A DNA stretch of 45,233 bases from contig JAUSEG010000012.1 in the NCBI GenBank assembly GCA_030650415.1, positions 1 through 45,233 of the forward strand, given 5' to 3'. Every line of letters starts with the position of its first letter. The first letter of the stretch is position 1. Below are positions 12,472 through 21,213 of this stretch, one piece after another. The position numbers were made by a program, and so were the translations under genes. The stretch comes from a bacterium. GTDB lineage: Bacteria; Patescibacteriota; Patescibacteriia; Patescibacteriales; GWC2-42-12. The notes beneath the pieces were generated by a model, which did not search any database, had not been told where the DNA came from, and saw only the letters and a program-made list of their open reading frames with translations.

Positions 12472-14295
12472 ATGCCTAAATTTATATTAAAAAGCAAGTT
12501 TCGTCCGACCGGCGACCAGCCGGAAGCTATTGCTAAGTTGGTAAACGGCCTAAATAAAGACTATCGCGATCAAACCCTCCTGGGCGTAACCGGCTCTGGC
12601 AAGACTTTTACTATGGCCAACATCATTGAAAAAATTCAAAAACCAACTTTGATAATTTCTCATAACAAAACCCTGGCCGCCCAGCTCTATGGCGAGTTTA
12701 AACAATTTTTTCCGGAGAACGCCGTGCATTATTTCGTTTCTTATTATGATTATTATCAACCCGAAGCCTATATCCCCCAAACCGACACCTATATCGAAAA
12801 AGAAGCGACCATCAACGAAGAAATTGACCGCTTGCGCCATGCCGCCACCCAATCTCTGCTTAATCGCCAAGACGTTTTAATCGTGGCCAGCGTTTCCTGC
12901 ATCTACGGTTTGGGCGAACGCGCCGAGTACGAAGCCATGAGCCGGCATTTCCGGGTTGGACAAAAAATCAAACGCCATCAGCTCTTGCGCGATTTAATAA
13001 AAATCCAATATACGCGCGACGATAAAGAATTTAAACGGGGCAGTTTCCGCGTTAAAGGCGAAAACGTTGACATTCACTTAGCTACGGGCGAGGGCCTGGT
13101 TAGAATTACTATGTTCGGCGATGTAATTGATAAAATCAATATCTATAATATCCGACCGGGAGCAGACGCGCCGCTCTGGTCGGCCGATTACCGCCGCCAG
13201 CATGCCCAGGAACTCGAAAAAATTTCTATTCTCCCTGCCAAGCACTTTATGACGCCGGAAGATAAAATGGCCAGAGCCCTAAAAAATATTCGCCAAGAAT
13301 TAAAACAAAGGCTTAAAGAATTAAAGAAGCAAAGCAAAGAAATGGAAGCTTACCGGCTGGATAAAAAAACCAACTATGACTTGGAAATGATGGAAGAAGT
13401 CGGCTATTGCAATGGCATAGAAAACTATTCTCGGCATCTAACCGGCCGCGCGCCCGGTTCGCCGTCCGAAACTTTAATTGATTTTTTCCCTAAGGATTAT
13501 TTAATGTTCATGGACGAATCGCATGTCTCTGTACCGCAAATCCGCGGCATGCACGCCGGCGACCAATCAAGAAAGCAAACCTTGATTGATTTCGGCTTTC
13601 GCCTGGAAAGCGCGCGGGACAATCGACCACTTAGCTTTAAAGAATTCAATGACAAAATTAAACAGGTAATTTATGTCAGCGCCACGCCGGCCGAATATGA
13701 AATAAAGAATTCTAAGCAGATAGTCGAGCAATTAGTTAGGCCGACCGGACTCTTAGATCCGGAAATAAAAGTCAGGCCAAACGCCGGGCAGATTGAAGAT
13801 TTAATTAAAGAAATAAAAGTGAGAACCGCCAAGGGCCAAAGAACTCTGGTCACGACCTTAACTAAACGGATGGCTGAAGAATTATCCAGCTACTTAGCCG
13901 AACAAAAAATTAAAGTTAACTATCTGCATAGCGAGGTCAGCACTCTGGAGCGGGTGGATATCCTGCGCGATTTACGCCTAGGAAAATACGATGTTCTGGT
14001 TGGCATTAATCTCTTGCGCGAAGGCCTGGATCTGCCCGAGGTATCGCTCGTAGCAATTTTAGACGCGGATATGTCCGGCTTCCTGCGCACCGAAACCTCG
14101 CTCATCCAGACCATGGGCCGCGCCGCTAGGCACCTGGAAGGCAAGGTTATCATGTACGCGGATAAAATCACGCCGGCCATGCGCTACGCCATTAACGAAA
14201 CTAAGCGACGCCGCCGCTATCAGGAAAATTACAATAAACAGCACGGCATCATACCGCGGCAAATTACGGCTAAATTTCATGAGAGTATGATTTAA
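12472..14295 (+). CDS. uvrB: Excinuclease ABC subunit B (short C-terminus)
   Basis: [36 protein letters not shown]. Confidence 0.98.
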
Positions 14296-14331
14296 AAAAG
14301 AGCGGTGATCATTTGATCCCGCTCTATTGGC

Positions 14332-14796
14332 TTAGAGAGAACATTGGCTTAGAAAAAACATTGACTTAACCGGCCGTCTGCTTTTTTTAGATAATCCCAG
14401 CTTTATCATATTGATTTTACGATAATAGCAAGATTTTCTGTAGCTTCCGTGCCTATCCTTAGTATGGCAAGCGCCACAACCTCCGACCGGCTCAACCAAA
14501 TAAAGCAAACTGTTTTGCTCGCAGTTTACTCTGACATCCTTAATTTTCAACACGCAACCGGAAGTTTCTCCTTTTATCCATAGCTCGTTTCTGGAAGTCG
14601 ACCAGAATACGGCCGTTCTTCTTTCCACTGTCAAACTGACGGCTTTGGCGTTGGCATAGGCTAAGAGCAAAACTTCTTTAGTTTGCCAGTCCTGCACCAC
14701 CACCGGTAGCACTCTAAGACCGAGCCTGGTAATCTTCTTAAGTTTGCCAAAGTCCAAACACAATCGTCCATTTTCTTCCAGTTCTTTTCTTTTCAT
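14332..14796 (-). CDS. hisI: Phosphoribosyl-AMP cyclohydrolase
   Basis: PVVVQD..T.EVL.LAY.N, FWSTSRNELWIKGETSG, NCEQNSLL, ACHT, SCYYR. ATG 14796 preferred. Confidence 0.9.
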   Translation of the reverse strand: MKRKELEENGRLCLDFGKLKKITRLGLRVLPVVVQDWQTKEVLLLAYANAKAVSLTVERRTAVFWSTSRNELWIKGETSGCVLKIKDVRVNCEQNSLLYLVEPVGGCGACHTKDRHGSYRKSCYYRKINMIKLGLSKKSRRPVKSMFFLSQCSL

Positions 14797-14848
14797 TTTG
14801 TTTATTTGTTTATTGTTTACCGTAGTCTGTCGTTTGATTGTAAAGATC

Positions 14849-14941
14849 AAAAAACCCTTCTTATTTCCAAGAAGGGTGGAGGTTTGATTATTTTAAAATA
14901 AAAACTCAACTCTTCTTAGAAACTAAAGAAGAGTTATGATG
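14849..14941 (-). promoter_or_regulatory. Candidate His attenuator (1:2, 2:3 and 3:4 helices)
   Basis: His-His codons, 10-bp 1:2 hairpin, 9-bp terminator with U tract; segment 2 is complementary to segment 3. Confidence 0.6.
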
Positions 14942-15226
14942 AGAATTTTCTCTATCTAAAATTAAACGATACCCGCCGGCGCCATTGTTCAACCATAGAG
15001 CCACGCGCGCCACCGTCGTGGTGCTGACTTTCAGCTTTTCCGCTATTTCACGGTAAGGCAAACCCTGATTTACCAGGCGGGCGATCTGCCAACGTTCGCT
15101 CATTTCCTTAATTTCATCAATCGTGCATAAATCACGAAAAAACCGCTCGGCTTCTTTAAGCGATTTTAGGCTAATTATCGCCTTAAACAGACTATCGGTT
15201 TTTTCATTAAATTTAAACTTTTCCAT
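14906..15226 (-). CDS. TrpR-like YerC/YecD regulator (HisR-type)
   Basis: FFRDLCT..E...M.ERW..A.L..G..YREIA....STTTVARV...L..G.GGY. Confidence 0.92.
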   Translation of the reverse strand: MEKFKFNEKTDSLFKAIISLKSLKEAERFFRDLCTIDEIKEMSERWQIARLVNQGLPYREIAEKLKVSTTTVARVALWLNNGAGGYRLILDRENSHHNSSLVSKKS

Positions 15227-15243
15227 AGATTTTTCCTTAACTT

Positions 15244-15263
15244 TGTATCACTATACTAATACA
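15244..15263. promoter_or_regulatory. Candidate autoregulatory operator
   Basis: Imperfect palindrome TGTATCACTATACTAATACA (16/20 symmetric), downstream of a minus-strand TTGACA at 15283-15288. Confidence 0.5.
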
Positions 15264-15333
15264 TTAACACAAATAAAAAATTTGTCAAGTCCCCTATTTA
15301 AGACATTGACAAACCGCTAACCTCCTTGCTTTT

Positions 15334-16755
15334 TTATTTAAATTCCGCCCGGCTTCTTAGCTTCCTGTGATAACCGATCGCGAAGCGGTGCGCTTCATCG
15401 CGCACTCGCTTAATCAGATGCAAGGCCGGCGAGGCTAAAGGCAATTCTAATGATTTTGACTCGCCGGGAAAAAATAGTTTGTCCGGCGCCGAGGCCGACC
15501 TTAGACCCAGCCCCTTGGAAATAGCGATCAATGGAATCGCCAGTTTTTGTTTTTTCAAAACGCTTGACGCCGCGTTTAGTTGAGGCTTGCCACCGTCCAC
15601 AATAATTAAGTCGGGTAGCGGCCAGCGCTGTTTGTCATCCTGGAGCGAAGCGATAGGATCTCTTCGTAATTTCCCTTCATGAGATGCTATCGCTCCCTGC
15701 GGTCGCTCCAGCATGACAGAATGAGTAAATCTCCTCTCAAGAACTTCCTTTAGCATACCTACGTCATTGGCTTGCCCTTGCCCAATTTTTATTTTAAATT
15801 TTCGATATTCATTTTTATTCGACTCGCCGCCGCTAAAAACTACCATGGAACCGACGGCTTCGCGCCCGAAAATATTGGCGATGTCATAGCCCTCTATCCG
15901 CTCCGGCGCTTTTGGCAAAGCTAGCAATTTGGCCAATTCCACTACGTCATTGGCGTATTTTTCTCCCACGCTTAGGACTCTGGCGTTCTCTAAAACCTGT
16001 TTCATATTTTTCAGTTCATATTTCAATCTGCCGAGCGCTTCATTATCGGCCTCGTCGCGATTATTCTTTTCCAGCTTCTTTATTTTAACTTCTCTGGCTA
16101 CGCCAGATCTGGCGAAGCCAGACAACTTCTTTATTCTAACTTCCATATTCTTAACTATCTTTCCCTTCTTCCCTTCTAAAAACATAATCAACGGTTTAAT
16201 CACCAACTTAATATACTCCTCTCTGGTAATCCGATCGGCGCAAATGCCTAAACATCTGCCAATTTGGTAATAAAAGCAAGGCCGGGTTTGCGTTTTTCTC
16301 ATATTGCAGTAGGGCCAAATTTTTCTGATGGCTCGAATAGTTTCGCGCGCCGCCAGAGAGCTTATAAACGGCCCGAAGTATTTACCCGATTTATCAATCT
16401 GCCTGGTTATGAAAACTCCGGGAATCTCATCTTCCGTGGAAATTTTAATATAGGCAAACCGCTTATCGTCCCGTAGAAGCACGTTATAATAGGGCTGATA
16501 TTTTTTTATTAAATTGGCTTCTAAGAGCAGAGCCTCGATTTCGCTGTCCACCGTAATCCACTTTATGGTTTTTATTTCCGCAAGCATCTTGTTTTTTGCC
16601 GGCGTGTGCCCGGCGCTCACGCGCCAATACGAAAGAACGCGGCTCTTTAAATTAGCCGCTTTGCCGATATAAATAATTTCTTTTTTACCGTTAAAAAACT
16701 GATAACAGCCGGGGGTTTCGGGTAGATTTAATTTTTTTACTTGTTCTAAGGTCAT
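15334..16755 (-). CDS. uvrC: Excinuclease ABC subunit C-like, with two in-frame repeat insertions and no C-terminal HhH
   Basis: LPETPGCY, IYIGKA.NL..RV, EALLLEANLIK, RIEGYDI, IVDGGKPQL, RDEAHRFAI. Confidence 0.92.
   Translation of the reverse strand: MTLEQVKKLNLPETPGCYQFFNGKKEIIYIGKAANLKSRVLSYWRVSAGHTPAKNKMLAEIKTIKWITVDSEIEALLLEANLIKKYQPYYNVLLRDDKRFAYIKISTEDEIPGVFITRQIDKSGKYFGPFISSLAARETIRAIRKIWPYCNMRKTQTRPCFYYQIGRCLGICADRITREEYIKLVIKPLIMFLEGKKGKIVKNMEVRIKKLSGFARSGVAREVKIKKLEKNNRDEADNEALGRLKYELKNMKQVLENARVLSVGEKYANDVVELAKLLALPKAPERIEGYDIANIFGREAVGSMVVFSGGESNKNEYRKFKIKIGQGQANDVGMLKEVLERRFTHSVMLERPQGAIASHEGKLRRDPIASLQDDKQRWPLPDLIIVDGGKPQLNAASSVLKKQKLAIPLIAISKGLGLRSASAPDKLFFPGESKSLELPLASPALHLIKRVRDEAHRFAIGYHRKLRSRAEFK
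15633..15718. repeat. TGTCAT..CTGGAG-type palindromic element in frame in uvrC
   Basis: TGTCATCCTGGAGCG...CGCTCCAGCATGACA; homologs at 34785 and 38078. Confidence 0.88.
16093..16122. repeat. 30-bp AGATCT-centred palindrome in frame in uvrC
   Basis: TCTGGCTACGCCAGATCTGGCGAAGCCAGA flanked by an 18-bp near-duplicate; related copy at 43456-43500. Confidence 0.85.
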
Positions 16756-17295: not shown

Positions 17296-20200
17296 TTATA
17301 TCCAGGTCACACAGGCGACTTTATCCGACTCTTCTTTAAATCTCATTAATCTGACGCCCTGCGTATCTCGCCCTAGAAGACTGACGCTCTTAAACGGCAA
17401 TCTGATAACCTGGCCTTTTTCCGAAATAATAATTATGTCTTTTTCGTCCATGCTTTCCGCGTTAACTATAAAGGCATTAATCAATTTTCCGGTCTTAGAG
17501 GTTACCTTGGCGGTCTTTATGCCCGACCCGCCTCGGCCTTGGGTTTTATATAGCCCGACACTTGAACGTTTGCCGAAACCATGCTCGGAAATTGCCAAGA
17601 GCTGATATTTTTTAATCTTCTCTTTATCATTTCTGATAATACCCATGCCGACCACCGCGTCTTCTTTCTTTTTTAATCTTATGCCCCTGACGCCGGCCGC
17701 GTTCCTGCCCATATCACGAACGTCGGTTTCTTTAAACCTGATAGCCTGACCCATGGCCGTAATTAACTGGATATGATCATCGCCGTTAGACGGTTTTGTC
17801 CAAATCAATCTATCATCGTCTTTAATTTTAATGGCGATTAAACCGGAGCGCCTGACATTCGAGAAAGCGCCGATCTCCACTTTTTTAACCAAGCCTTTTT
17901 CCGTGGCAAAAAATAGGTACTTGCTCTTAGCTAATTTATCCAGAGGCAAAACCGAGGTGATTTTTTCTCCGCCGGCCAATTGCAAAAAGTTAACGATCGG
18001 CGTGCCCTTAGCGGTTCTTTGCGCTTGGGGTATTTCATAAGCCTTAAGCTGAAAAACTCTACCCTTAGTGGTAAAAAATAATAAATCATTATGAGTCAGA
18101 GTGGTGAACATAAAGTCCACCATATCTTCTTCCTTGGTGGTTAAACCGATAACGCCCTTACCGCCTCGACCCTGAACTTTAAAAGTATCGGGCGTGGTAC
18201 GCTTGATATAGCCGTCGCGAGTCATCATCACTACGGCTTCTTCGTTCGGCACCAAGTCTTCAACGGAAAACTCCTTAACTCCATGAGCAACGATTTTAGT
18301 TCTTCGATCATCACCGAATTTTTCCGTTAAATCTTTAATTTCTTTCTTGATGATGTCTTTAACCTTTACGCTCGACTTTAGAATCGCTTCCAGGTCTTTA
18401 ATTAAAACTCGTTTTTCTTTAAGTTCATTTTCAATTTTCAATCTTTCAAGGTTGGCTAAAGTCGATAGTTTCATGTCCAGAATCGCCTGGGTTTGGCGCT
18501 CGGATAGTTTAAACTTCTTCATTAAATTCACTTTGGCCGCTTCTTTGTCTTTCGAAGCTTTAATTATTTTTATCACCGCGTCAATATTATTTAGAGCGAT
18601 CATTAAGCCTTCTAAAATATGGGCTCGTTCGCGCGCTTTATCTAAATCAAACTGGGTGCGGCGCTTAACCACTTCCGTGCGATGCTTAATATATTCTTCT
18701 AAAACCATTTTTAAGGTTAATACTTTGGGCTGAATGCCGTCGATTAGGGCCAGCATATTAACATGAAAAGTCTCCTGGAGCTGCGTCATCTTAAACAGGC
18801 TGTTTAAAATCTTTTTCGGATAGGCGTCCTTCTTTAAATCAACCACCACTCTAACGCCGTCTTTATCCGATTCGTCGCGCAAGTCTTTTATGCCTTCAAT
18901 TTTCTTTTCTTTTACCAAGTCGGCGATTTTTTCCACTAAAGTGGCCTTATTAACCGCGTAAGGTATCTCGGAAATCACAATTTGAAACGAGCCGTTCTTA
19001 TGTTCGAGCACCTCGGCCACGCCGCGTATGACTATCCCGCCCTTGCCGGTAGCGTAGGCTTGTAAAATATCTTTATGATTATAAATAACACCGCCGGTCG
19101 GAAAATCCGGCCCCTTAACGAACTGCATTAAATCTTCAACCGTAGCTTCGGGGTTAGCGATTAAATGAATTATCGCGTCGGTTAATTCTCTTAAATTATG
19201 AGGCGGAATGCTGGTTGCCATACCGACGGCTATGCCCATAGTGCCGTTTAGCAATAAGTTAGGCAGTTTGGCCGGCATGACCATCGGTTCCAGGTGCGAG
19301 CCGTCAAAATTCGGTATGAAATTAACCGTGTTTTTATCAATATCAAACATCAGTTCCTCGGCAATAGCGGAAAGTTTGGCTTCGGTGTAGCGCATGGCGG
19401 CGGCGCTGTCGCCGTCCATTGAATTATGAACAAAGACTCCCGCAGCTAAACAGAAGTTGTGAGTCTTATCTATAGTTAAATCATAAACATCTTCTTTTCC
19501 GGTCAACCTTATAATTTTGACAACCTTATGATTATTGCTAACCTCCTGCCTAACTAAATCCGGATTACTTTGAAAATATTTTTTTAAGGCTTTCTGCCAA
19601 ACCGGAGCGGCACCATAAGAATAAATTTTATTTCTGGTTTTCTCATAATTTTCTTCATTAAGCATCCATTGCTGTTTTATAATTTCTCGACAAATATTTA
19701 AAAATTTAATTTTACCGGTTTTATTAACAGTATGATTTTTATTGCCCTTGATAATTTTTTCATGCATTCGCAAACGGTACAAAGGATCTTGCCATAGTTT
19801 TTTTAAAGTTTTACTGGCTCGCTTGCTTAACTCGTCCCGTTTTTCCGGATGATCTAAAATATACTGCTTATTGGTTTCGCTTAAAGATCGCTTCATCTTA
19901 TCGCGATATTCGGGATTTTGCCAATTTTTAATATTTCTTTCTGACAAAGATTTCGCGTAACGCGCTTTATTGTCCGGATTAGACCAAAAAGTTTTTCTGC
20001 CTTGCGCGATTTTTTCGCGATATTCGGTGCTTTGATGAAGACTCGCCGCTTGCTCATAATGGATTTTCCAATGTTCACCCCACTGCATTCTGGCAATATT
20101 GTCCGGGTCGTTATTTAACTTGTTAAAATCAATATGATGTCTTACTCGCCCCGCGCTTTTCTTATATTTACCCGCGCTCAAGTTATAATTATCTGCCAAA

Positions 20201-21213
20201 TGATGCGCCGGCACCCACTCATTGGTTTTATTTTGATGTATTAAAATATAATCTTCCCTATTTAATCGATCGGTCTTAACGGAAAGTTTTTGATACAAGG
20301 GCATTAAAGAATCTCCGGATTTTAACTTCTCCGCTTCCAGATAGACGCCACTTCTTAACATGAACAAATGGTTAGGTGTACATTTTATTTCTTCTCCATT
20401 ATCCAATATAATCTTAGTGATTTCCGCCTGTTTTTTGGTCAATCTTGGTTTTTCAATCTTGGCGATAGAAATAAGCCCCAAGCTATTAACGGTATAAGTA
20501 TAATTTTGCTTGCCTCTTTTATATTCTTTTATAAGTTCGCCAAAGCTTAAACCTCTGCCATCGGTCAGTTTTACTTTAGTATCTTTAGTAAAACAGCCGA
20601 AGTTACCCTGCCCGCGCACTAACATGTAGCGCATGGAAAAATCTTGCGCCATTCTGACCATGGAATCATAAACCGCCGTATCGCCGTGCGGATGATACTT
20701 GCCTAAAACTTCTCCGACCACGGTGGCCGATTTCCTGAATCTGGCTCCGGCTCTAAGGCCGATGCTCCACATAGCGTAGAGAATTCTGCGGTGCACCGGC
20801 TTTAAACCGTCGCGCACGTCGGGCAAAGCGCGGGAAACGATCACGCTCATGGCGTAATCCAAATACGATTTTCGCATTTCATCGATCAAGGGTTGCGGTT
20901 CAACCATGCCATAAAGAGTTTTCTCTTTTTTAAAGACAGTCTGGTTAGGAATCGAGCCAATGCCGTTCTTCACTTCCCCATCAACGGCTTCTTCAATTGT
21001 TTCAACTTTCTTTTTAATCGGTACAACCGCTTTATTCTCCCCCTTTAACAAATGGGGCTGGGGGGATTTAATTTCGTTTTTCTCAATTTCCGCCGGCAAA
21101 ACTTCAATTGCCTTTTTTACAGCTTTAATCTTTTCCGGCTCTTTGCTCTCGGGTTTTTTTGGCTTTTTTGCTTTAATTTTCTTTAATATTTTTTTTACCA
21201 TTCTATTTGTCAT
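17296..21213 (-). CDS. gyrA: DNA gyrase subunit A with intein and Lys-rich N-terminal extension
   Basis: [30 protein letters not shown], GyrA-box QGRGGKG. Start could be 21201. Confidence 0.97.
19423..20595 (-). mobile_element. Intein, 391 aa, with HNH-type endonuclease
   Basis: GNFG|CFTKDT...IKCTPNHLF...VYDLT...FVHN|SMDGD; [14 protein letters not shown]...EH. Confidence 0.95.

Follow-up and report, generated by a model that had tools for sequence, protein, structure and literature searches.

A candidate histidine-sensing transcription attenuator that appears to use hisR as its leader ORF in a patescibacterium

Our analysis indicates that a hisI-like gene of a patescibacterium is probably controlled by a ribosome-mediated, histidine-sensing transcription attenuator located between hisR and the hisI-like gene, and that the leader ORF of this attenuator is hisR itself. 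The element was identified in a window of 45,233 nt, by which we mean the whole stretch of DNA analysed (contig JAUSEG010000012.1 of assembly GCA_030650415.1). The source organism is a tiny groundwater bacterium. A search of sequencing runs listed no RNA run containing the locus; the four matches listed were DNA metagenome contigs, one of which may be the source.

The hisR gene of the window is the sole TrpR-family gene of the genome. By its sequence it is an orthologue of HisR/YerC, and histidine-dependent DNA binding is predicted for its product. Residues 1-86 constitute the repressor body and contain no His, the final 12-13 or so residues constitute a tail, and the minus-strand reading of the ORF ends in S-H-H-N-S-S-L-V-S-K-K-S-stop. 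Four RNA segments follow the tandem His codons (Table 1). Segments 1 and 2 are perfect 10-bp complements with an 8-nt loop. Segment 2 has two alternative partners: with segment 1 it could form a pause or anti-antiterminator hairpin, and with segment 3 an antiterminator that spans 13 positions (14917-14905 with 14881-14869) and includes two mismatches. The stem of the 3:4 terminator comprises 10 pairs, 4 of them G-C, and TTTTTT comes directly after it. A scan of positions 14000-15600 detected 8 terminator-like sites versus 2.2 expected from shuffled sequences, and both the 1:2 and 3:4 hairpins were among them. The U-rich tract behind hairpin 1:2 may pause RNA polymerase or act as a weak first terminator. 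An initial annotation of the window had placed CAT CAT and segments 1-4 where we find them on the minus strand, with every coordinate borne out, and the 2:3 pairing that it described as extendable via GAG/CUC was recovered. It had segment 2 abutting the stop codon; the location was right, but the two overlap by one base, since TGA occupies 14908-14906 and its first base is thus the final base of segment 2. Similarly, the terminator that it saw in front of hisI does exist as the 3:4 hairpin and T-run, 50 nt upstream of the PRA-CH ATG, but the gene is an orphan, divergent HisI-like homologue. The geometry of ribosome-mediated attenuation that it recognised was also confirmed, in that the His codons, four segments, stop codon and T tract are positioned as the classical model requires.

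Table 1. Positions of the elements discussed in the text, with the separate leader ORFs of three related loci
Feature	Position in window	Strand	Sequence	Remark
Putative −35 box of hisR promoter	15283..15288	minus	TTGACA	predicted from sequence
Candidate −10 box	15261..15266	minus	TAATGT	TGT before it (extended −10); 16 nt past −35; predicted
Candidate HisR operator	15244..15263	minus	TGTATTAG-TATA-GTGATACA	20-bp imperfect palindrome; sequence reading
hisR (yerC-like) ORF	14906..15226	minus		106 aa; TrpR family, PF01371, E 1.5e-25, residues 9-93
Regulatory His codons	14936..14941	minus	CAT CAT	no other His codon in hisR ORF
Segment 1	14926..14935	minus	AACTCTTCTT / AACUCUUCUU	directly 3′ of CAT CAT
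Segment 2, core	14908..14917	minus	AAGAAGAGTT / AAGAAGAGUU	14905..14917 with GAG extension
hisR stop codon	14906..14908	minus	TGA	inside extended segment 2
U-rich tract	14895..14904	minus	UUUUUAUUUU	immediately after hairpin 1:2; terminator-like in scan
Segment 3, core	14869..14877	minus	ACCCTTCTT	terminator 5′ arm and segment 2 partner
Segment 3, extended	14869..14881	minus	CUCC-ACCCUUCUU	same 5′ arm
Segment 4	14854..14862	minus	AAGAAGGGT	followed by TTTTT(T)
Segment 4 with U tract	14849..14862	minus	AAGAAGGGU	intrinsic terminator with segment 3
PRA-CH (HisI-like) gene, regulated	14332..14796	minus		154 aa; ATG at 14796; PF01502, E 7e-24
Separate leader, L063			MTVNILQQLHHHQIISP	overlaps hisR stop as ATGA
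Separate leader, L082			MNYSIIINNNHHKTLLC	overlaps hisR stop as ATGA
Separate leader, L059			MNYLFSIFGHHYALP	overlaps hisR stop as ATGA

According to our model, transcription would start at a promoter overlapped by the HisR operator, and RNA polymerase would proceed through hisR. At the end of the ORF hairpin 1:2 would form and, together with the U-rich tract, would probably pause RNA polymerase until the leading ribosome arrives. When His-tRNA is scarce, the ribosome would stall with CAU-CAU in its decoding sites and cover segment 1; the extended 2:3 antiterminator would then form, preventing formation of 3:4 and resulting in readthrough into the hisI-like gene. With the P site at the first His codon, a downstream footprint of about 15 nt is predicted to extend to the final base of segment 1 (14926), and segment 1 would lie under a ribosome whose A site contains the second His codon. 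Conversely, when His-tRNA is plentiful, the ribosome would reach the stop codon and cover segment 2, allowing the 3:4 terminator to end the transcript after hisR. If the transcript were not translated, 1:2 and 3:4 would both form and termination would again be expected. It follows from this mechanism that the operon would be under double histidine control, by free histidine via HisR and by His-tRNA charging via the attenuator. The mechanism needs the first ribosome to be coupled to RNA polymerase over the entire 318-nt leader ORF, and such coupling is presumed.

Roughly 400 hisR loci were detected. A total of 99 loci were examined; removal of 14 duplicates left 85 distinct loci, 25 fused (tail-bearing) and 60 unfused. 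A tail was defined as a His-bearing extension after the GGY[RK] motif, and L060, with scattered His residues and no adjacent pair, was not counted as tail-bearing. The initial annotation had named C-terminal His runs in YerC genes near his genes as a mark of the mechanism, and these were found: 25 distinct Patescibacteria orthologues have a His-bearing tail, which in 22 includes at least two adjacent His residues (HH or HHH) and in the other three reads H-Y (L011), a single H (L012) or H-Q-H (L045). Six further fused His-tail loci were recovered with an RNA covariance model. The non-His part of the tail varies by lineage (NSSxxFKKS, RPALVEKDLS, DSIQSRRGLS or RST). L004, whose contig ends 42 nt past the stop codon, was excluded from the folding and alignment tests, leaving 24 loci. 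Among these the His codons lie 27-33 nt upstream of the stop codon in 18, and by automatic detection segment 3 begins 25-29 nt past the stop codon in 17. The terminator arms of L006, L040, L046 and L072 were set by hand; the automatic finder chose 2:3 or an outer helix. By eye, segment 2 is followed by a U-rich run in most of the loci inspected.

Co-variation of the helices, also named in the initial annotation, was strong for 3:4 and 2:3 and moderate for 1:2. Helix 3:4 was 90.7% paired with both-sided changes in 8 of 9 pairs. In an unfitted MAFFT alignment, helix 2:3 was 81.8% paired with both-sided changes in 12 of 13 pairs and had 47 double-change cells versus 18.9 in shuffles (none of 500 reached 47), where the compared loci are related and the counts are not independent events. 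Slid controls for helix 2:3 were 42-57% paired. Helix 1:2 was 62% paired with both-sided changes in 5 of 10 pairs, was weak in L019, L021, L037, L040 and L043, and, given the likeness of segments 2 and 4, is not distinguished from 1:4 by co-variation. For 17 representative loci we computed duplexes of segment 3 with the segment-1/2 region. Cognate combinations averaged −14.2 kcal/mol and non-cognate combinations −8.7 kcal/mol, and no value as low as that of the cognate set arose in 100,000 permutations; L064 failed this test (−4.9 kcal/mol, rank 17 of 17). A covariance model from 10 loci found a single element in the window's genome, at 110.7 bits, and found the element in 22 of the 151 genomes of an order sample.

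The repressor bodies of the fused forms contain 1 His among 2157 residues, and 24 of the 25 bodies contain none. By comparison, the bodies of all 60 unfused forms contain 121 His among 5422 residues, those of the unfused forms within the Patescibacteria clade (n = 28) contain 40 among 2430, and the large ORFs of the window itself contain 2.2% His. The lone body His of the fused set is in a doubtful TTG-start extension of L064. Codon usage was compared among 7 colinear orthologues at pair-positions with the same residue. The codons for the His residues, segment 1 and segment 2 were identical at 141 of 151 such positions (93%), versus 805 of 1446 in the gene body (56%) and 26 of 42 in the loop codons (62%). 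Since the synonymous sites of the stem codons are frozen (93% versus 56%), selection appears to act on the RNA. The loss of His from the body and the frozen stem codons support the candidate fused-leader attenuator.

In six unfused hisR loci (L063, L082, L059, L077, L106 and L054) an equivalent element of four segments is preceded by a short, separate ORF for a His leader, and two more such loci (L124 and L125) were found with the RNA model. These Patescibacteria loci share with the fused form the four segments, His codons just before segment 1 and similar downstream genes, but differ in that the leader is an independent ORF of 15-27 aa, free-standing or overlapping as ATGA, and in that their hisR bodies contain 1-5 His. 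Well-supported branches of a HisR tree (89 columns, with 20 of 82 inner branches unresolved) force at least two changes between the fused and separate states, and tail-less forms are nested within the fused clade. From the His tails, the 2:3 co-variation, the frozen synonymous sites, the His purge and the separate-leader sister lineages, the tail is best read as a short His leader peptide that has been joined in frame to hisR. These lines of evidence likewise favour the proposal of the initial annotation that the repressor gene doubles as the leader. We also considered whether the His tail serves the protein, for instance by giving HisR a C-terminal tag that binds metal or histidine, in which case the hairpins would be an ordinary terminator and a side effect of codon choice. 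HH/HHH is conserved at the protein level too, and the tail may have a dual use. As the sole account this is hardly likely: the stem codons point to RNA selection, the sister lineages place their His codons outside HisR, and no such tail occurs on the HisR orthologues of Chloroflexota, Actinomycetota or Peregrinibacteria.

The 161-nt region had a folding energy of −36.1 kcal/mol, versus −22.6 ± 3.2 kcal/mol for shuffled sequences (z −4.2; none of 200 as good). The equilibrium fold of the free RNA was a nested structure of 1:4 around 2:3 (−34.3 kcal/mol), which was preferred over 1:2 plus 3:4 (about −24 kcal/mol). As isolated hairpins, 1:2 and 3:4 had energies of −11.7 and −12.2 kcal/mol, respectively, and a transcript ending before segment 4 adopted the 2:3 fold (−17.7 kcal/mol). 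Ribosomes were represented as masks. With the stop codon masked, the terminator formed in the window and in 23 of the 24 loci. Masking of the last His codon removed the terminator from the minimum-energy fold in 13 of the 24 loci, whereas at least half of it was kept in 11. The initial annotation had called for a comparison of folding energies, and in the window the outcome was divided: placing the first His codon in the A site gave the 2:3 antiterminator and no terminator as the fold of lowest energy (−18.4 kcal/mol), but the terminator was retained in that fold (−19.4 kcal/mol) when the A site was occupied by the second. Equilibrium folding of the attenuator is therefore equivocal in these computations. 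A purely thermodynamic switch is counted against by terminator loss in only 13 of the 24 masked loci; because the terminator often survives the His-codon mask at equilibrium, the attenuation model needs kinetic, co-transcriptional folding.

As the free RNA has its minimum energy in the nested fold, one alternative is a static long hairpin that would stabilise the RNA or serve for its processing (e.g., by RNase III), with no sensing by ribosomes. The equivalence of 1:2 and 1:4 in the co-variation analysis fits such a hairpin, as does the fact that the weak Rfam matches described below are all to long-hairpin families. However, a static fold has no need of 3:4 and its T tract, which are themselves conserved with compensatory changes, and segment 1 fits segment 2 better than segment 4 (perfect versus one G-U in the window; perfect versus a bulge in L039). 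A static hairpin also gives no role to the conserved His codons, the His purge or the position of the stop codon, and we find it scarcely probable.

Retention of the terminator when the second His codon occupies the A site would also be expected if the region were a plain gene end, with tandem terminators (1:2 plus the U-rich tract, and 3:4 plus the T tract), a separate signal for the hisI-like gene, and incidental stem likeness and His codons; both hairpins did resemble terminators in the simple scan. We judge this alternative very unlikely. It leaves unexplained why segment 2 tracks segment 3 through lineage-specific sequences, why HH/HHH is retained while the rest of the tail changes, why only the fused forms have repressor bodies purged of His, and why related loci carry a separate short His ORF on an equivalent structure. 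Moreover, a consensus scan detected no sigma-70-like promoter between the 3:4 terminator and the PRA-CH ATG. We retain the ribosome-mediated attenuator as the preferred interpretation.

A search of positions 14300-15400 against Rfam for a known family returned 31 weak matches (E up to 10), none of which reached its gathering score, and we assign the element to no Rfam family. Most of the matches were long hairpins of miRNA type; Phe_leader scored 19.7 where the threshold is 55, and His_leader (RF00514) was absent from the matches at E up to 10. A weak match to the PyrR binding site (26.3 bits, with the threshold at 54; E 0.34) is what might favour sensing of something other than His-tRNA, by an RNA-binding protein or a small molecule in the manner of PyrR or a riboswitch; control of translation of the next gene would be a related possibility. 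The failure of any Rfam family to reach threshold argues against such mechanisms, as do the lack of conserved unpaired sequence or a pocket beyond the stems, the conserved T tract, and the start region of the hisI-like gene, which is 50 nt past the hairpin. We consider them extremely unlikely, and continue with His-tRNA sensing by the ribosome.

In the trpL and hisL leaders, tandem cognate codons precede segment 1, the pairings 1:2, 2:3 and 3:4 are mutually exclusive, 3:4 is the terminator, and the stop codon is positioned such that a terminating ribosome blocks segment 2; trpL has two regulatory codons. The window element resembles E. coli and Salmonella hisL and trpL in its tandem codons, four segments, 3:4 terminator and stop codon placement, and its two regulatory codons equal the number in trpL. 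It differs in that the leader ORF is a whole 106-aa TrpR-family regulator gene rather than a short dedicated peptide of 14-30 aa, in that the element lies between two operon genes instead of in a 5′ leader, and in that the regulated gene is outside any complete his pathway. In the B. subtilis pyr operon, pyrR is first and is followed by intercistronic attenuators, for which the sensor is the PyrR protein on the RNA. The window locus shares with pyr a regulator gene followed by an attenuator within the operon, although in pyr it is PyrR and not the ribosome that senses. SecM and MifM are full-length ORFs on which the ribosome stalls near the C terminus, remodelling the downstream RNA. These differ from the window element in sensing secretion or insertion through nascent-chain arrest and in acting on translation, as opposed to codon starvation and termination.

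The distance from TTGACA to the start codon is kept in nearly all of 30 Patescibacteria hisR upstream regions. Weakness of the −10 box explains why the consensus promoter scan missed TTGACA; at identical spacing, relatives have TAATGT, TAATAT or TATTGT. The palindrome at 15244..15263 suggests that hisR would be autoregulated by HisR. Close relatives keep the operator palindrome upstream of hisR as TGTATTA-N6-TGATACA, and the palindrome of the window resembles the proteobacterial HisR motif TGTAnTArnnnnyTnTTACA published by Ashniev et al. (2022; PMC9413887). Four more distant tail-bearing loci (L019, L021, L064 and L072) carry CTTTA-N6-TAAAG, which is the Firmicutes-type HisR motif given in section 6 of that article. 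HisR is a validated histidine repressor, with histidine-dependent DNA binding reported for the Ruminococcus gnavus protein (PMC9413887).

The published HisR and that of the window share membership of the TrpR family, an order of hisR first and then his genes, and a 20-bp promoter palindrome. They differ in that the published HisR is shorter than 100 aa and has no C-terminal His tail described, whereas the clade of the window has a His-free body and a 3′ RNA structure (PMC9413887). Section 8 of the same article describes candidate His attenuators in the Bacillus cereus group, Peptostreptococcaceae and Erysipelotrichales. Like the window element, these come from comparative genomics and place short His-codon runs (3-5 there, 2-4 here) directly upstream of alternative terminator and antiterminator structures before his genes. 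As described in that section, however, they have separate short leader ORFs and occur solely in lineages without HisR, whereas here HisR and the attenuator share an ORF (PMC9413887). The text of PMC9413887 contains no mention of Patescibacteria, and at the level of titles and abstracts the literature searched contained neither a His attenuator in Patescibacteria nor a leader fused to a regulator.

The regulated gene itself differs from a standard hisI. The D-C-D-x-D residues of HisI have a catalytic role. In alignments, the corresponding PRA-CH motif of the window is N-C-E-Q-N, versus D-C-D-G-D in 1zps and D-C-D-R-D in 7bgm, and the altered motif is common to 5 relatives; by sequence, the PRA-CH is a divergent subfamily in which D-C-D-x-D is replaced. 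HisA/F, HisD, HisG, IGPD and PRA-PH were not found in the window's genome, which is 98.7% complete. Inspection of the sequence revealed no obvious Shine-Dalgarno sequence before the PRA-CH ATG.

Leader-peptide attenuation is a textbook mechanism in which leader ORFs are treated as short, disposable peptides. What is new here is that a functional transcription factor gene apparently serves as the leader ORF, and that the fusion seems to have left evolutionary marks in the His purge of the body, the frozen synonymous sites and repeated fusion and fission. A wider joint reading, which in our judgement stands evenly between right and wrong, is that within a clade of Patescibacteria a His leader was fused to hisR (with fusion or fission at least twice and later losses) and the body was purged of His, such that one ORF reports both free histidine, as corepressor of HisR, and His-tRNA charging, through stalling, and governs a reduced module in cells unable to make histidine. 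Because the body is purged of His codons, the first ribosome could stall only at the tail, and stalling at the last codons would also lower the yield of finished repressor, leading to stronger derepression. The module would then consist of a divergent PRA-CH, sometimes HisG, and GNAT, AstE/AspA-type deacylase, SLOG and HAD genes, and would suggest that symbiotic, auxotrophic bacteria have a regulon for histidine starvation or salvage. If the attenuator is confirmed, attenuators could be built onto the 3′ ends of real genes within operons; these would escape current search tools, since such tools are confined to 5′ leaders with short ORFs. Confirmation would also mean that free amino acid and charged tRNA signals are integrated in a single cistron, and that uncultured Candidate Phyla Radiation bacteria, whose regulation is poorly understood, use coupled transcription-translation control. 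The analysis in addition flags a conserved, putatively histidine-responsive gene set in histidine auxotrophs.

The genes behind the element were also surveyed. Of the 24 fused loci, 12 have hisI and/or hisG in first or second place, which supports a link to histidine, and the other 12, where non-his genes or genes of unknown function follow, count against it. Among the separate-leader loci, L054, L059 and L106 have hisI, hisI-hisG or hisG-hisD behind the element. In Chloroflexota and Actinomycetota, HisG directly follows hisR with a stop/start overlap in all 11 loci scanned, and HisD is next after HisG in 7 of the 8 loci for which a second ORF was scanned.

The window genome (1.29 Mb, 98.7% complete) holds a single TrpR-family gene, which is followed on the minus strand by a gene for a HisI-like protein (PRA-CH). 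The uvrB gene, on the plus strand, is convergent, and nothing of interest was found on the plus strand at the attenuator locus. A related-locus search gave metagenome-assembled genomes of Falkowbacteria and Parcubacteria, both Patescibacteria, as the closest named relatives. Chloroflexota and Actinomycetota orthologues overlap the hisG start by 4 nt or 1 nt, with hisD next after hisG in seven of the eight loci in which a second ORF was scanned. According to the available text of PMC9413887, this protein, formerly YerC, is the histidine repressor HisR, validated in vitro and frequently encoded by the gene that opens a his operon. Upstream of hisR are a TTGACA box and a 20-bp palindrome (TGTATTAG-TATA-GTGATACA) similar to one HisR motif type in that text, while the other type published there, CTTTA-N6-TAAAG, occurs in more distant tail-bearing loci. 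Box and palindrome are both conserved in relatives. From these features together, HisR would likely autoregulate its own gene.

Features of the hisR locus, with the basis for each assignment
Feature	Positions	Strand	Basis or remark
uvrC	16929-15334	-	ORF order in window
TTGACA box upstream of hisR	15288-15283	-	conserved in relatives
20-bp palindrome	15263-15244	-	conserved in relatives
TrpR-family ORF (hisR), 106 aa	15226-14906	-	PF01371, E 1.5e-25
His codons CAT CAT	14941-14936	-	sequence reading
Segment 1	14935-14926	-	sequence reading
Segment 2	14917-14908	-	sequence reading
Stop codon TGA	14908-14906	-	its T common to segment 2
U-rich tract 3′ of hairpin 1:2	14904-14895	-	by eye
Segment 3	14877-14869	-	sequence reading
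Segment 4, T tract after	14862-14854	-	sequence reading
PRA-CH (HisI-like) gene, ATG at 14796	14796-14332	-	PF01502, E 7e-24

The initial annotation had placed a candidate four-segment attenuator with His codons and a terminator at the 3′ end of the regulator gene, and sequence reading confirmed this anatomy. The ORF ends S-H-H-N-S-S-L-V-S-K-K-S-stop. Coordinates for the His codons and all four segments were exact, but the stop codon shares its T with segment 2 rather than abutting it. A simple terminator scan found hairpins 1:2 and 3:4 both terminator-like. Their folding energies are −11.7 and −12.2 kcal/mol, and the region is far more stable than its shuffles (z −4.2). The minimum-energy fold of the free RNA nests 2:3 within 1:4, which is possible because each of the four segments is a version of a single repeat or of that repeat's complement.

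Folding with a ribosome footprint blocked bore out the proposed switch in part. As predicted, with the first His codon at the centre of the mask the minimum-energy fold lacked the terminator and contained an extended 2:3 helix (−18.4), and a mask on the stop codon left the terminator present; a transcript stopping before segment 4 also adopted the 2:3 fold (−17.7). However, masking the second His codon retained the terminator in the equilibrium fold (−19.4), and over 24 loci the terminator was gone in 13 and at least half kept in 11. The switch would therefore have to be kinetic, as we read it here and as it is in classical attenuators. By eye, most loci again have a U-rich tract following hairpin 1:2; it could serve as a pause site that gives the ribosome time to catch up. 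The model assumes ribosome–polymerase coupling across the 318-nt hisR ORF.

Segments 1–4 vary in concert among lineages, as in the related loci L039 (segments 1/2, AACACTTCC/GGAAGTGTT; segments 3/4, AACACCTTCC/GGAAGGTG), L043 (segment 2, AAAAAGAGATCG; segment 3, CGATCCCTTTTT) and L072 (segments 1/2, CTCAAC/GTTGAG-TCGGTT; segments 3/4, AACCGG/CCGGTT). Pair counts came from 24 loci aligned with MAFFT without any fitting to structure. The 13-bp helix 2:3 was 81.8% paired, with both-side changes at 12 of 13 pairs and 47 double-change cells versus 18.9 in shuffles, none of 500 reaching 47; slid controls were 42–57% paired. Helix 3:4 was 90.7% paired, with double changes at eight of nine pairs. Thus the covariation that the initial annotation proposed to test was strong for these two helices, whereas helix 1:2 was weaker, being only 62% paired with double changes at 5 of 10 pairs; this low value is partly a problem of alignment register and partly a real weakness in some lineages. 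In an alignment-free test of 17 representative loci, the segment-1/2 region was paired with its own segment 3 and with that of every other locus. The mean duplex energy was −14.2 kcal/mol for cognate and −8.7 for non-cognate pairs, a cognate mean equalled by none of 100,000 permutations. The cognate segment 3 ranked first or second in 12 of the 17, and the test was negative for L064 (−4.9 kcal/mol). Since independent hairpins need not resemble each other, the covariation of segments 2 and 3 is the key comparative evidence for an antiterminator.

The hisR protein was present in 21 of 61 related genomes. A pattern scan across the species genomes of GTDB gave 415 relatives, and with the best 80 of these included, 99 loci less 14 duplicates left 85. 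A search of these YerC orthologues for C-terminal His tails past the GGY[RK] motif found them in 25, all from Patescibacteria. Two to four His residues are adjacent in 22 of these tails, the exceptions being L011 (H-Y), L012 (one H) and L045 (H-Q-H); the other tail residues vary among lineages. The geometry is kept: 18 of 24 loci have their last His codon 27–33 nt upstream of the stop, and segment 3, detected automatically, begins 25–29 nt past the stop in 17 of 24.

Selection on the coding sequence was examined pairwise among seven colinear 106-aa orthologues, using identical-residue positions only. The codon was also identical at 141 of 151 positions (93%) for the His, segment 1 and segment 2 codons, versus 805 of 1446 (56%) in the gene body and 26 of 42 (62%) in the loop. 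His in the window HisR is confined to the tail, and the large ORFs of the window are 2.2% His. Among the 25 fused forms, in which the tail is part of hisR, the bodies hold one His in 2157 residues (24 of 25 are His-free) and the tails 58 in 508. The 60 unfused forms hold 121 in 5422 (6 of 60 His-free), and the 28 of these from the Patescibacteria clade hold 40 in 2430, with 6 of 28 His-free. Of those six His-free bodies, five branch inside the fused clade. If the first ribosome must reach the terminal His checkpoint unhindered, internal His codons would be expected to be lost. No rival explanation predicts this purge of the repressor body.

In six Patescibacteria loci where hisR is unfused, the four-segment element recurs, preceded by a short His leader that is separate from hisR. 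The leader start overlaps the hisR stop as ATGA in L063 (MTVNILQQLHHHQIISP), L082 (MNYSIIINNNHHKTLLC) and L059 (MNYLFSIFGHHYALP), and the leaders of L077, L106 and L054 are free-standing 100–130 nt downstream, with an operator-bearing promoter between hisR and leader in L106. Searching with a covariance model derived from 10 of the fused loci gave exactly one element in the window genome and elements in 22 of 151 genomes sampled across the order; the reverse strand of the window element scored 56.9 bits because the stems are near-symmetric. Fourteen newly listed loci were counted, the other listed matches being known loci or reverse-strand shadows. Nine of the 14 are hisR tails, six of them new (AAHHRSS.., NHHRNPS.. 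twice, LGHHNSF.., LGHHRPL.. and KSHHHNSS...); two, L124 and L125, are separate His leaders of 26–27 aa, and one, L127, is a weak partial match without His. The other two are a hisR remnant (L042/L118) and a leader with Asn codons (L129). At L042:7250-7460 (= L118), a 32-aa ORF (MKKPIINKKSGYKSALNKLSLHNNSSLIFKKS) after a tail-less hisR and hisG retains the hisR promoter, tail, attenuator (90.6 bits) and a single His codon, and looks like a hisR reduced to its leader part. In the HisR tree, which comes from a short alignment and has many unresolved forks, well-supported branches require the leader to have switched between the fused and the separate state at least twice, and tail-less forms nest within the fused clade. 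Given the separate leaders and these changes, the tail is best interpreted as a leader peptide which has become joined to hisR and has also separated from it.

The putative promoter/operator block (15244-15288, minus strand) also precedes the separate leader of L106 and the remnant of hisR at L042. In another Patescibacteria genome, a four-segment element (L129; G140:C4:10877-10969, minus strand) behind a short ORF with four Asn codons (MLIRFIQSSQNNNNRAPGR) is a candidate asparagine attenuator. L037 has, besides the His attenuator that precedes its SLOG-cluster-4 gene, a weaker copy behind that gene (L037:3355-3458, 41.3 bits), and the pair may represent tandem attenuators within one operon.

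Several independent comparative signals thus support the earlier proposal of a His attenuator with the repressor as leader, and on this sequence evidence the locus is likely a real His-sensing attenuator. Its working principle would be that of the attenuators at trp and his leaders and of the candidate His attenuators that PMC9413887 describes in Firmicutes; an Rfam scan did not place it in His_leader. It departs from the defining habit of known attenuators, a short dedicated leader ORF; the repressor-fused leader would be new among them. In the available text of PMC9413887, His attenuators are reported only where HisR is absent, whereas this element coexists with HisR. Among the papers listed by literature searches, as judged by title and abstract, none described this arrangement or any Patescibacteria attenuator.

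Among 24 fused loci, hisI and/or hisG follows the element in 12, and the rest have behind it radical-SAM, GNAT, AstE/AspA-type deacylase, SLOG-cluster-4, HAD, DUF6282-linked or unknown genes. Searches of the window genome found no HisA/F, HisD, HisG, IGPD or PRA-PH; HisD was absent from five relatives, and HisA/F was above the cut-off in only one. In the HisI-like protein, N-C-E-Q-N stands in place of the D-C-D-x-D of solved HisI proteins, an alteration common to five fused-lineage relatives and absent from L054 and L059. This orphan PRA-CH homologue may have a new function; no obvious Shine-Dalgarno sequence precedes its ATG. By every sequence criterion the element is a histidine sensor, and histidine synthesis is probably not what it switches on.

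In Patescibacteria lacking the his pathway, several kinds of gene are repeatedly found after hisR or the His attenuator: GNAT acetyltransferase, AstE/AspA-type deacylase, SLOG-cluster-4, HAD hydrolase, radical-SAM and DUF6282-linked. They may form a gene set for histidine starvation or salvage. In L080, hisR is upstream of an aromatic amino-acid lyase (HutH-like) gene. Elsewhere in the window, the uvrC ORF as listed has a TTG start and about 57 odd N-terminal residues; its true start is probably the later M-T-L-E-Q-V-K-K. The gyrA-like ORF (17296-21213, minus strand; 1305 aa) has by eye a long insertion from C-F-T-K-D to V-H-N-S that looks like a candidate intein.
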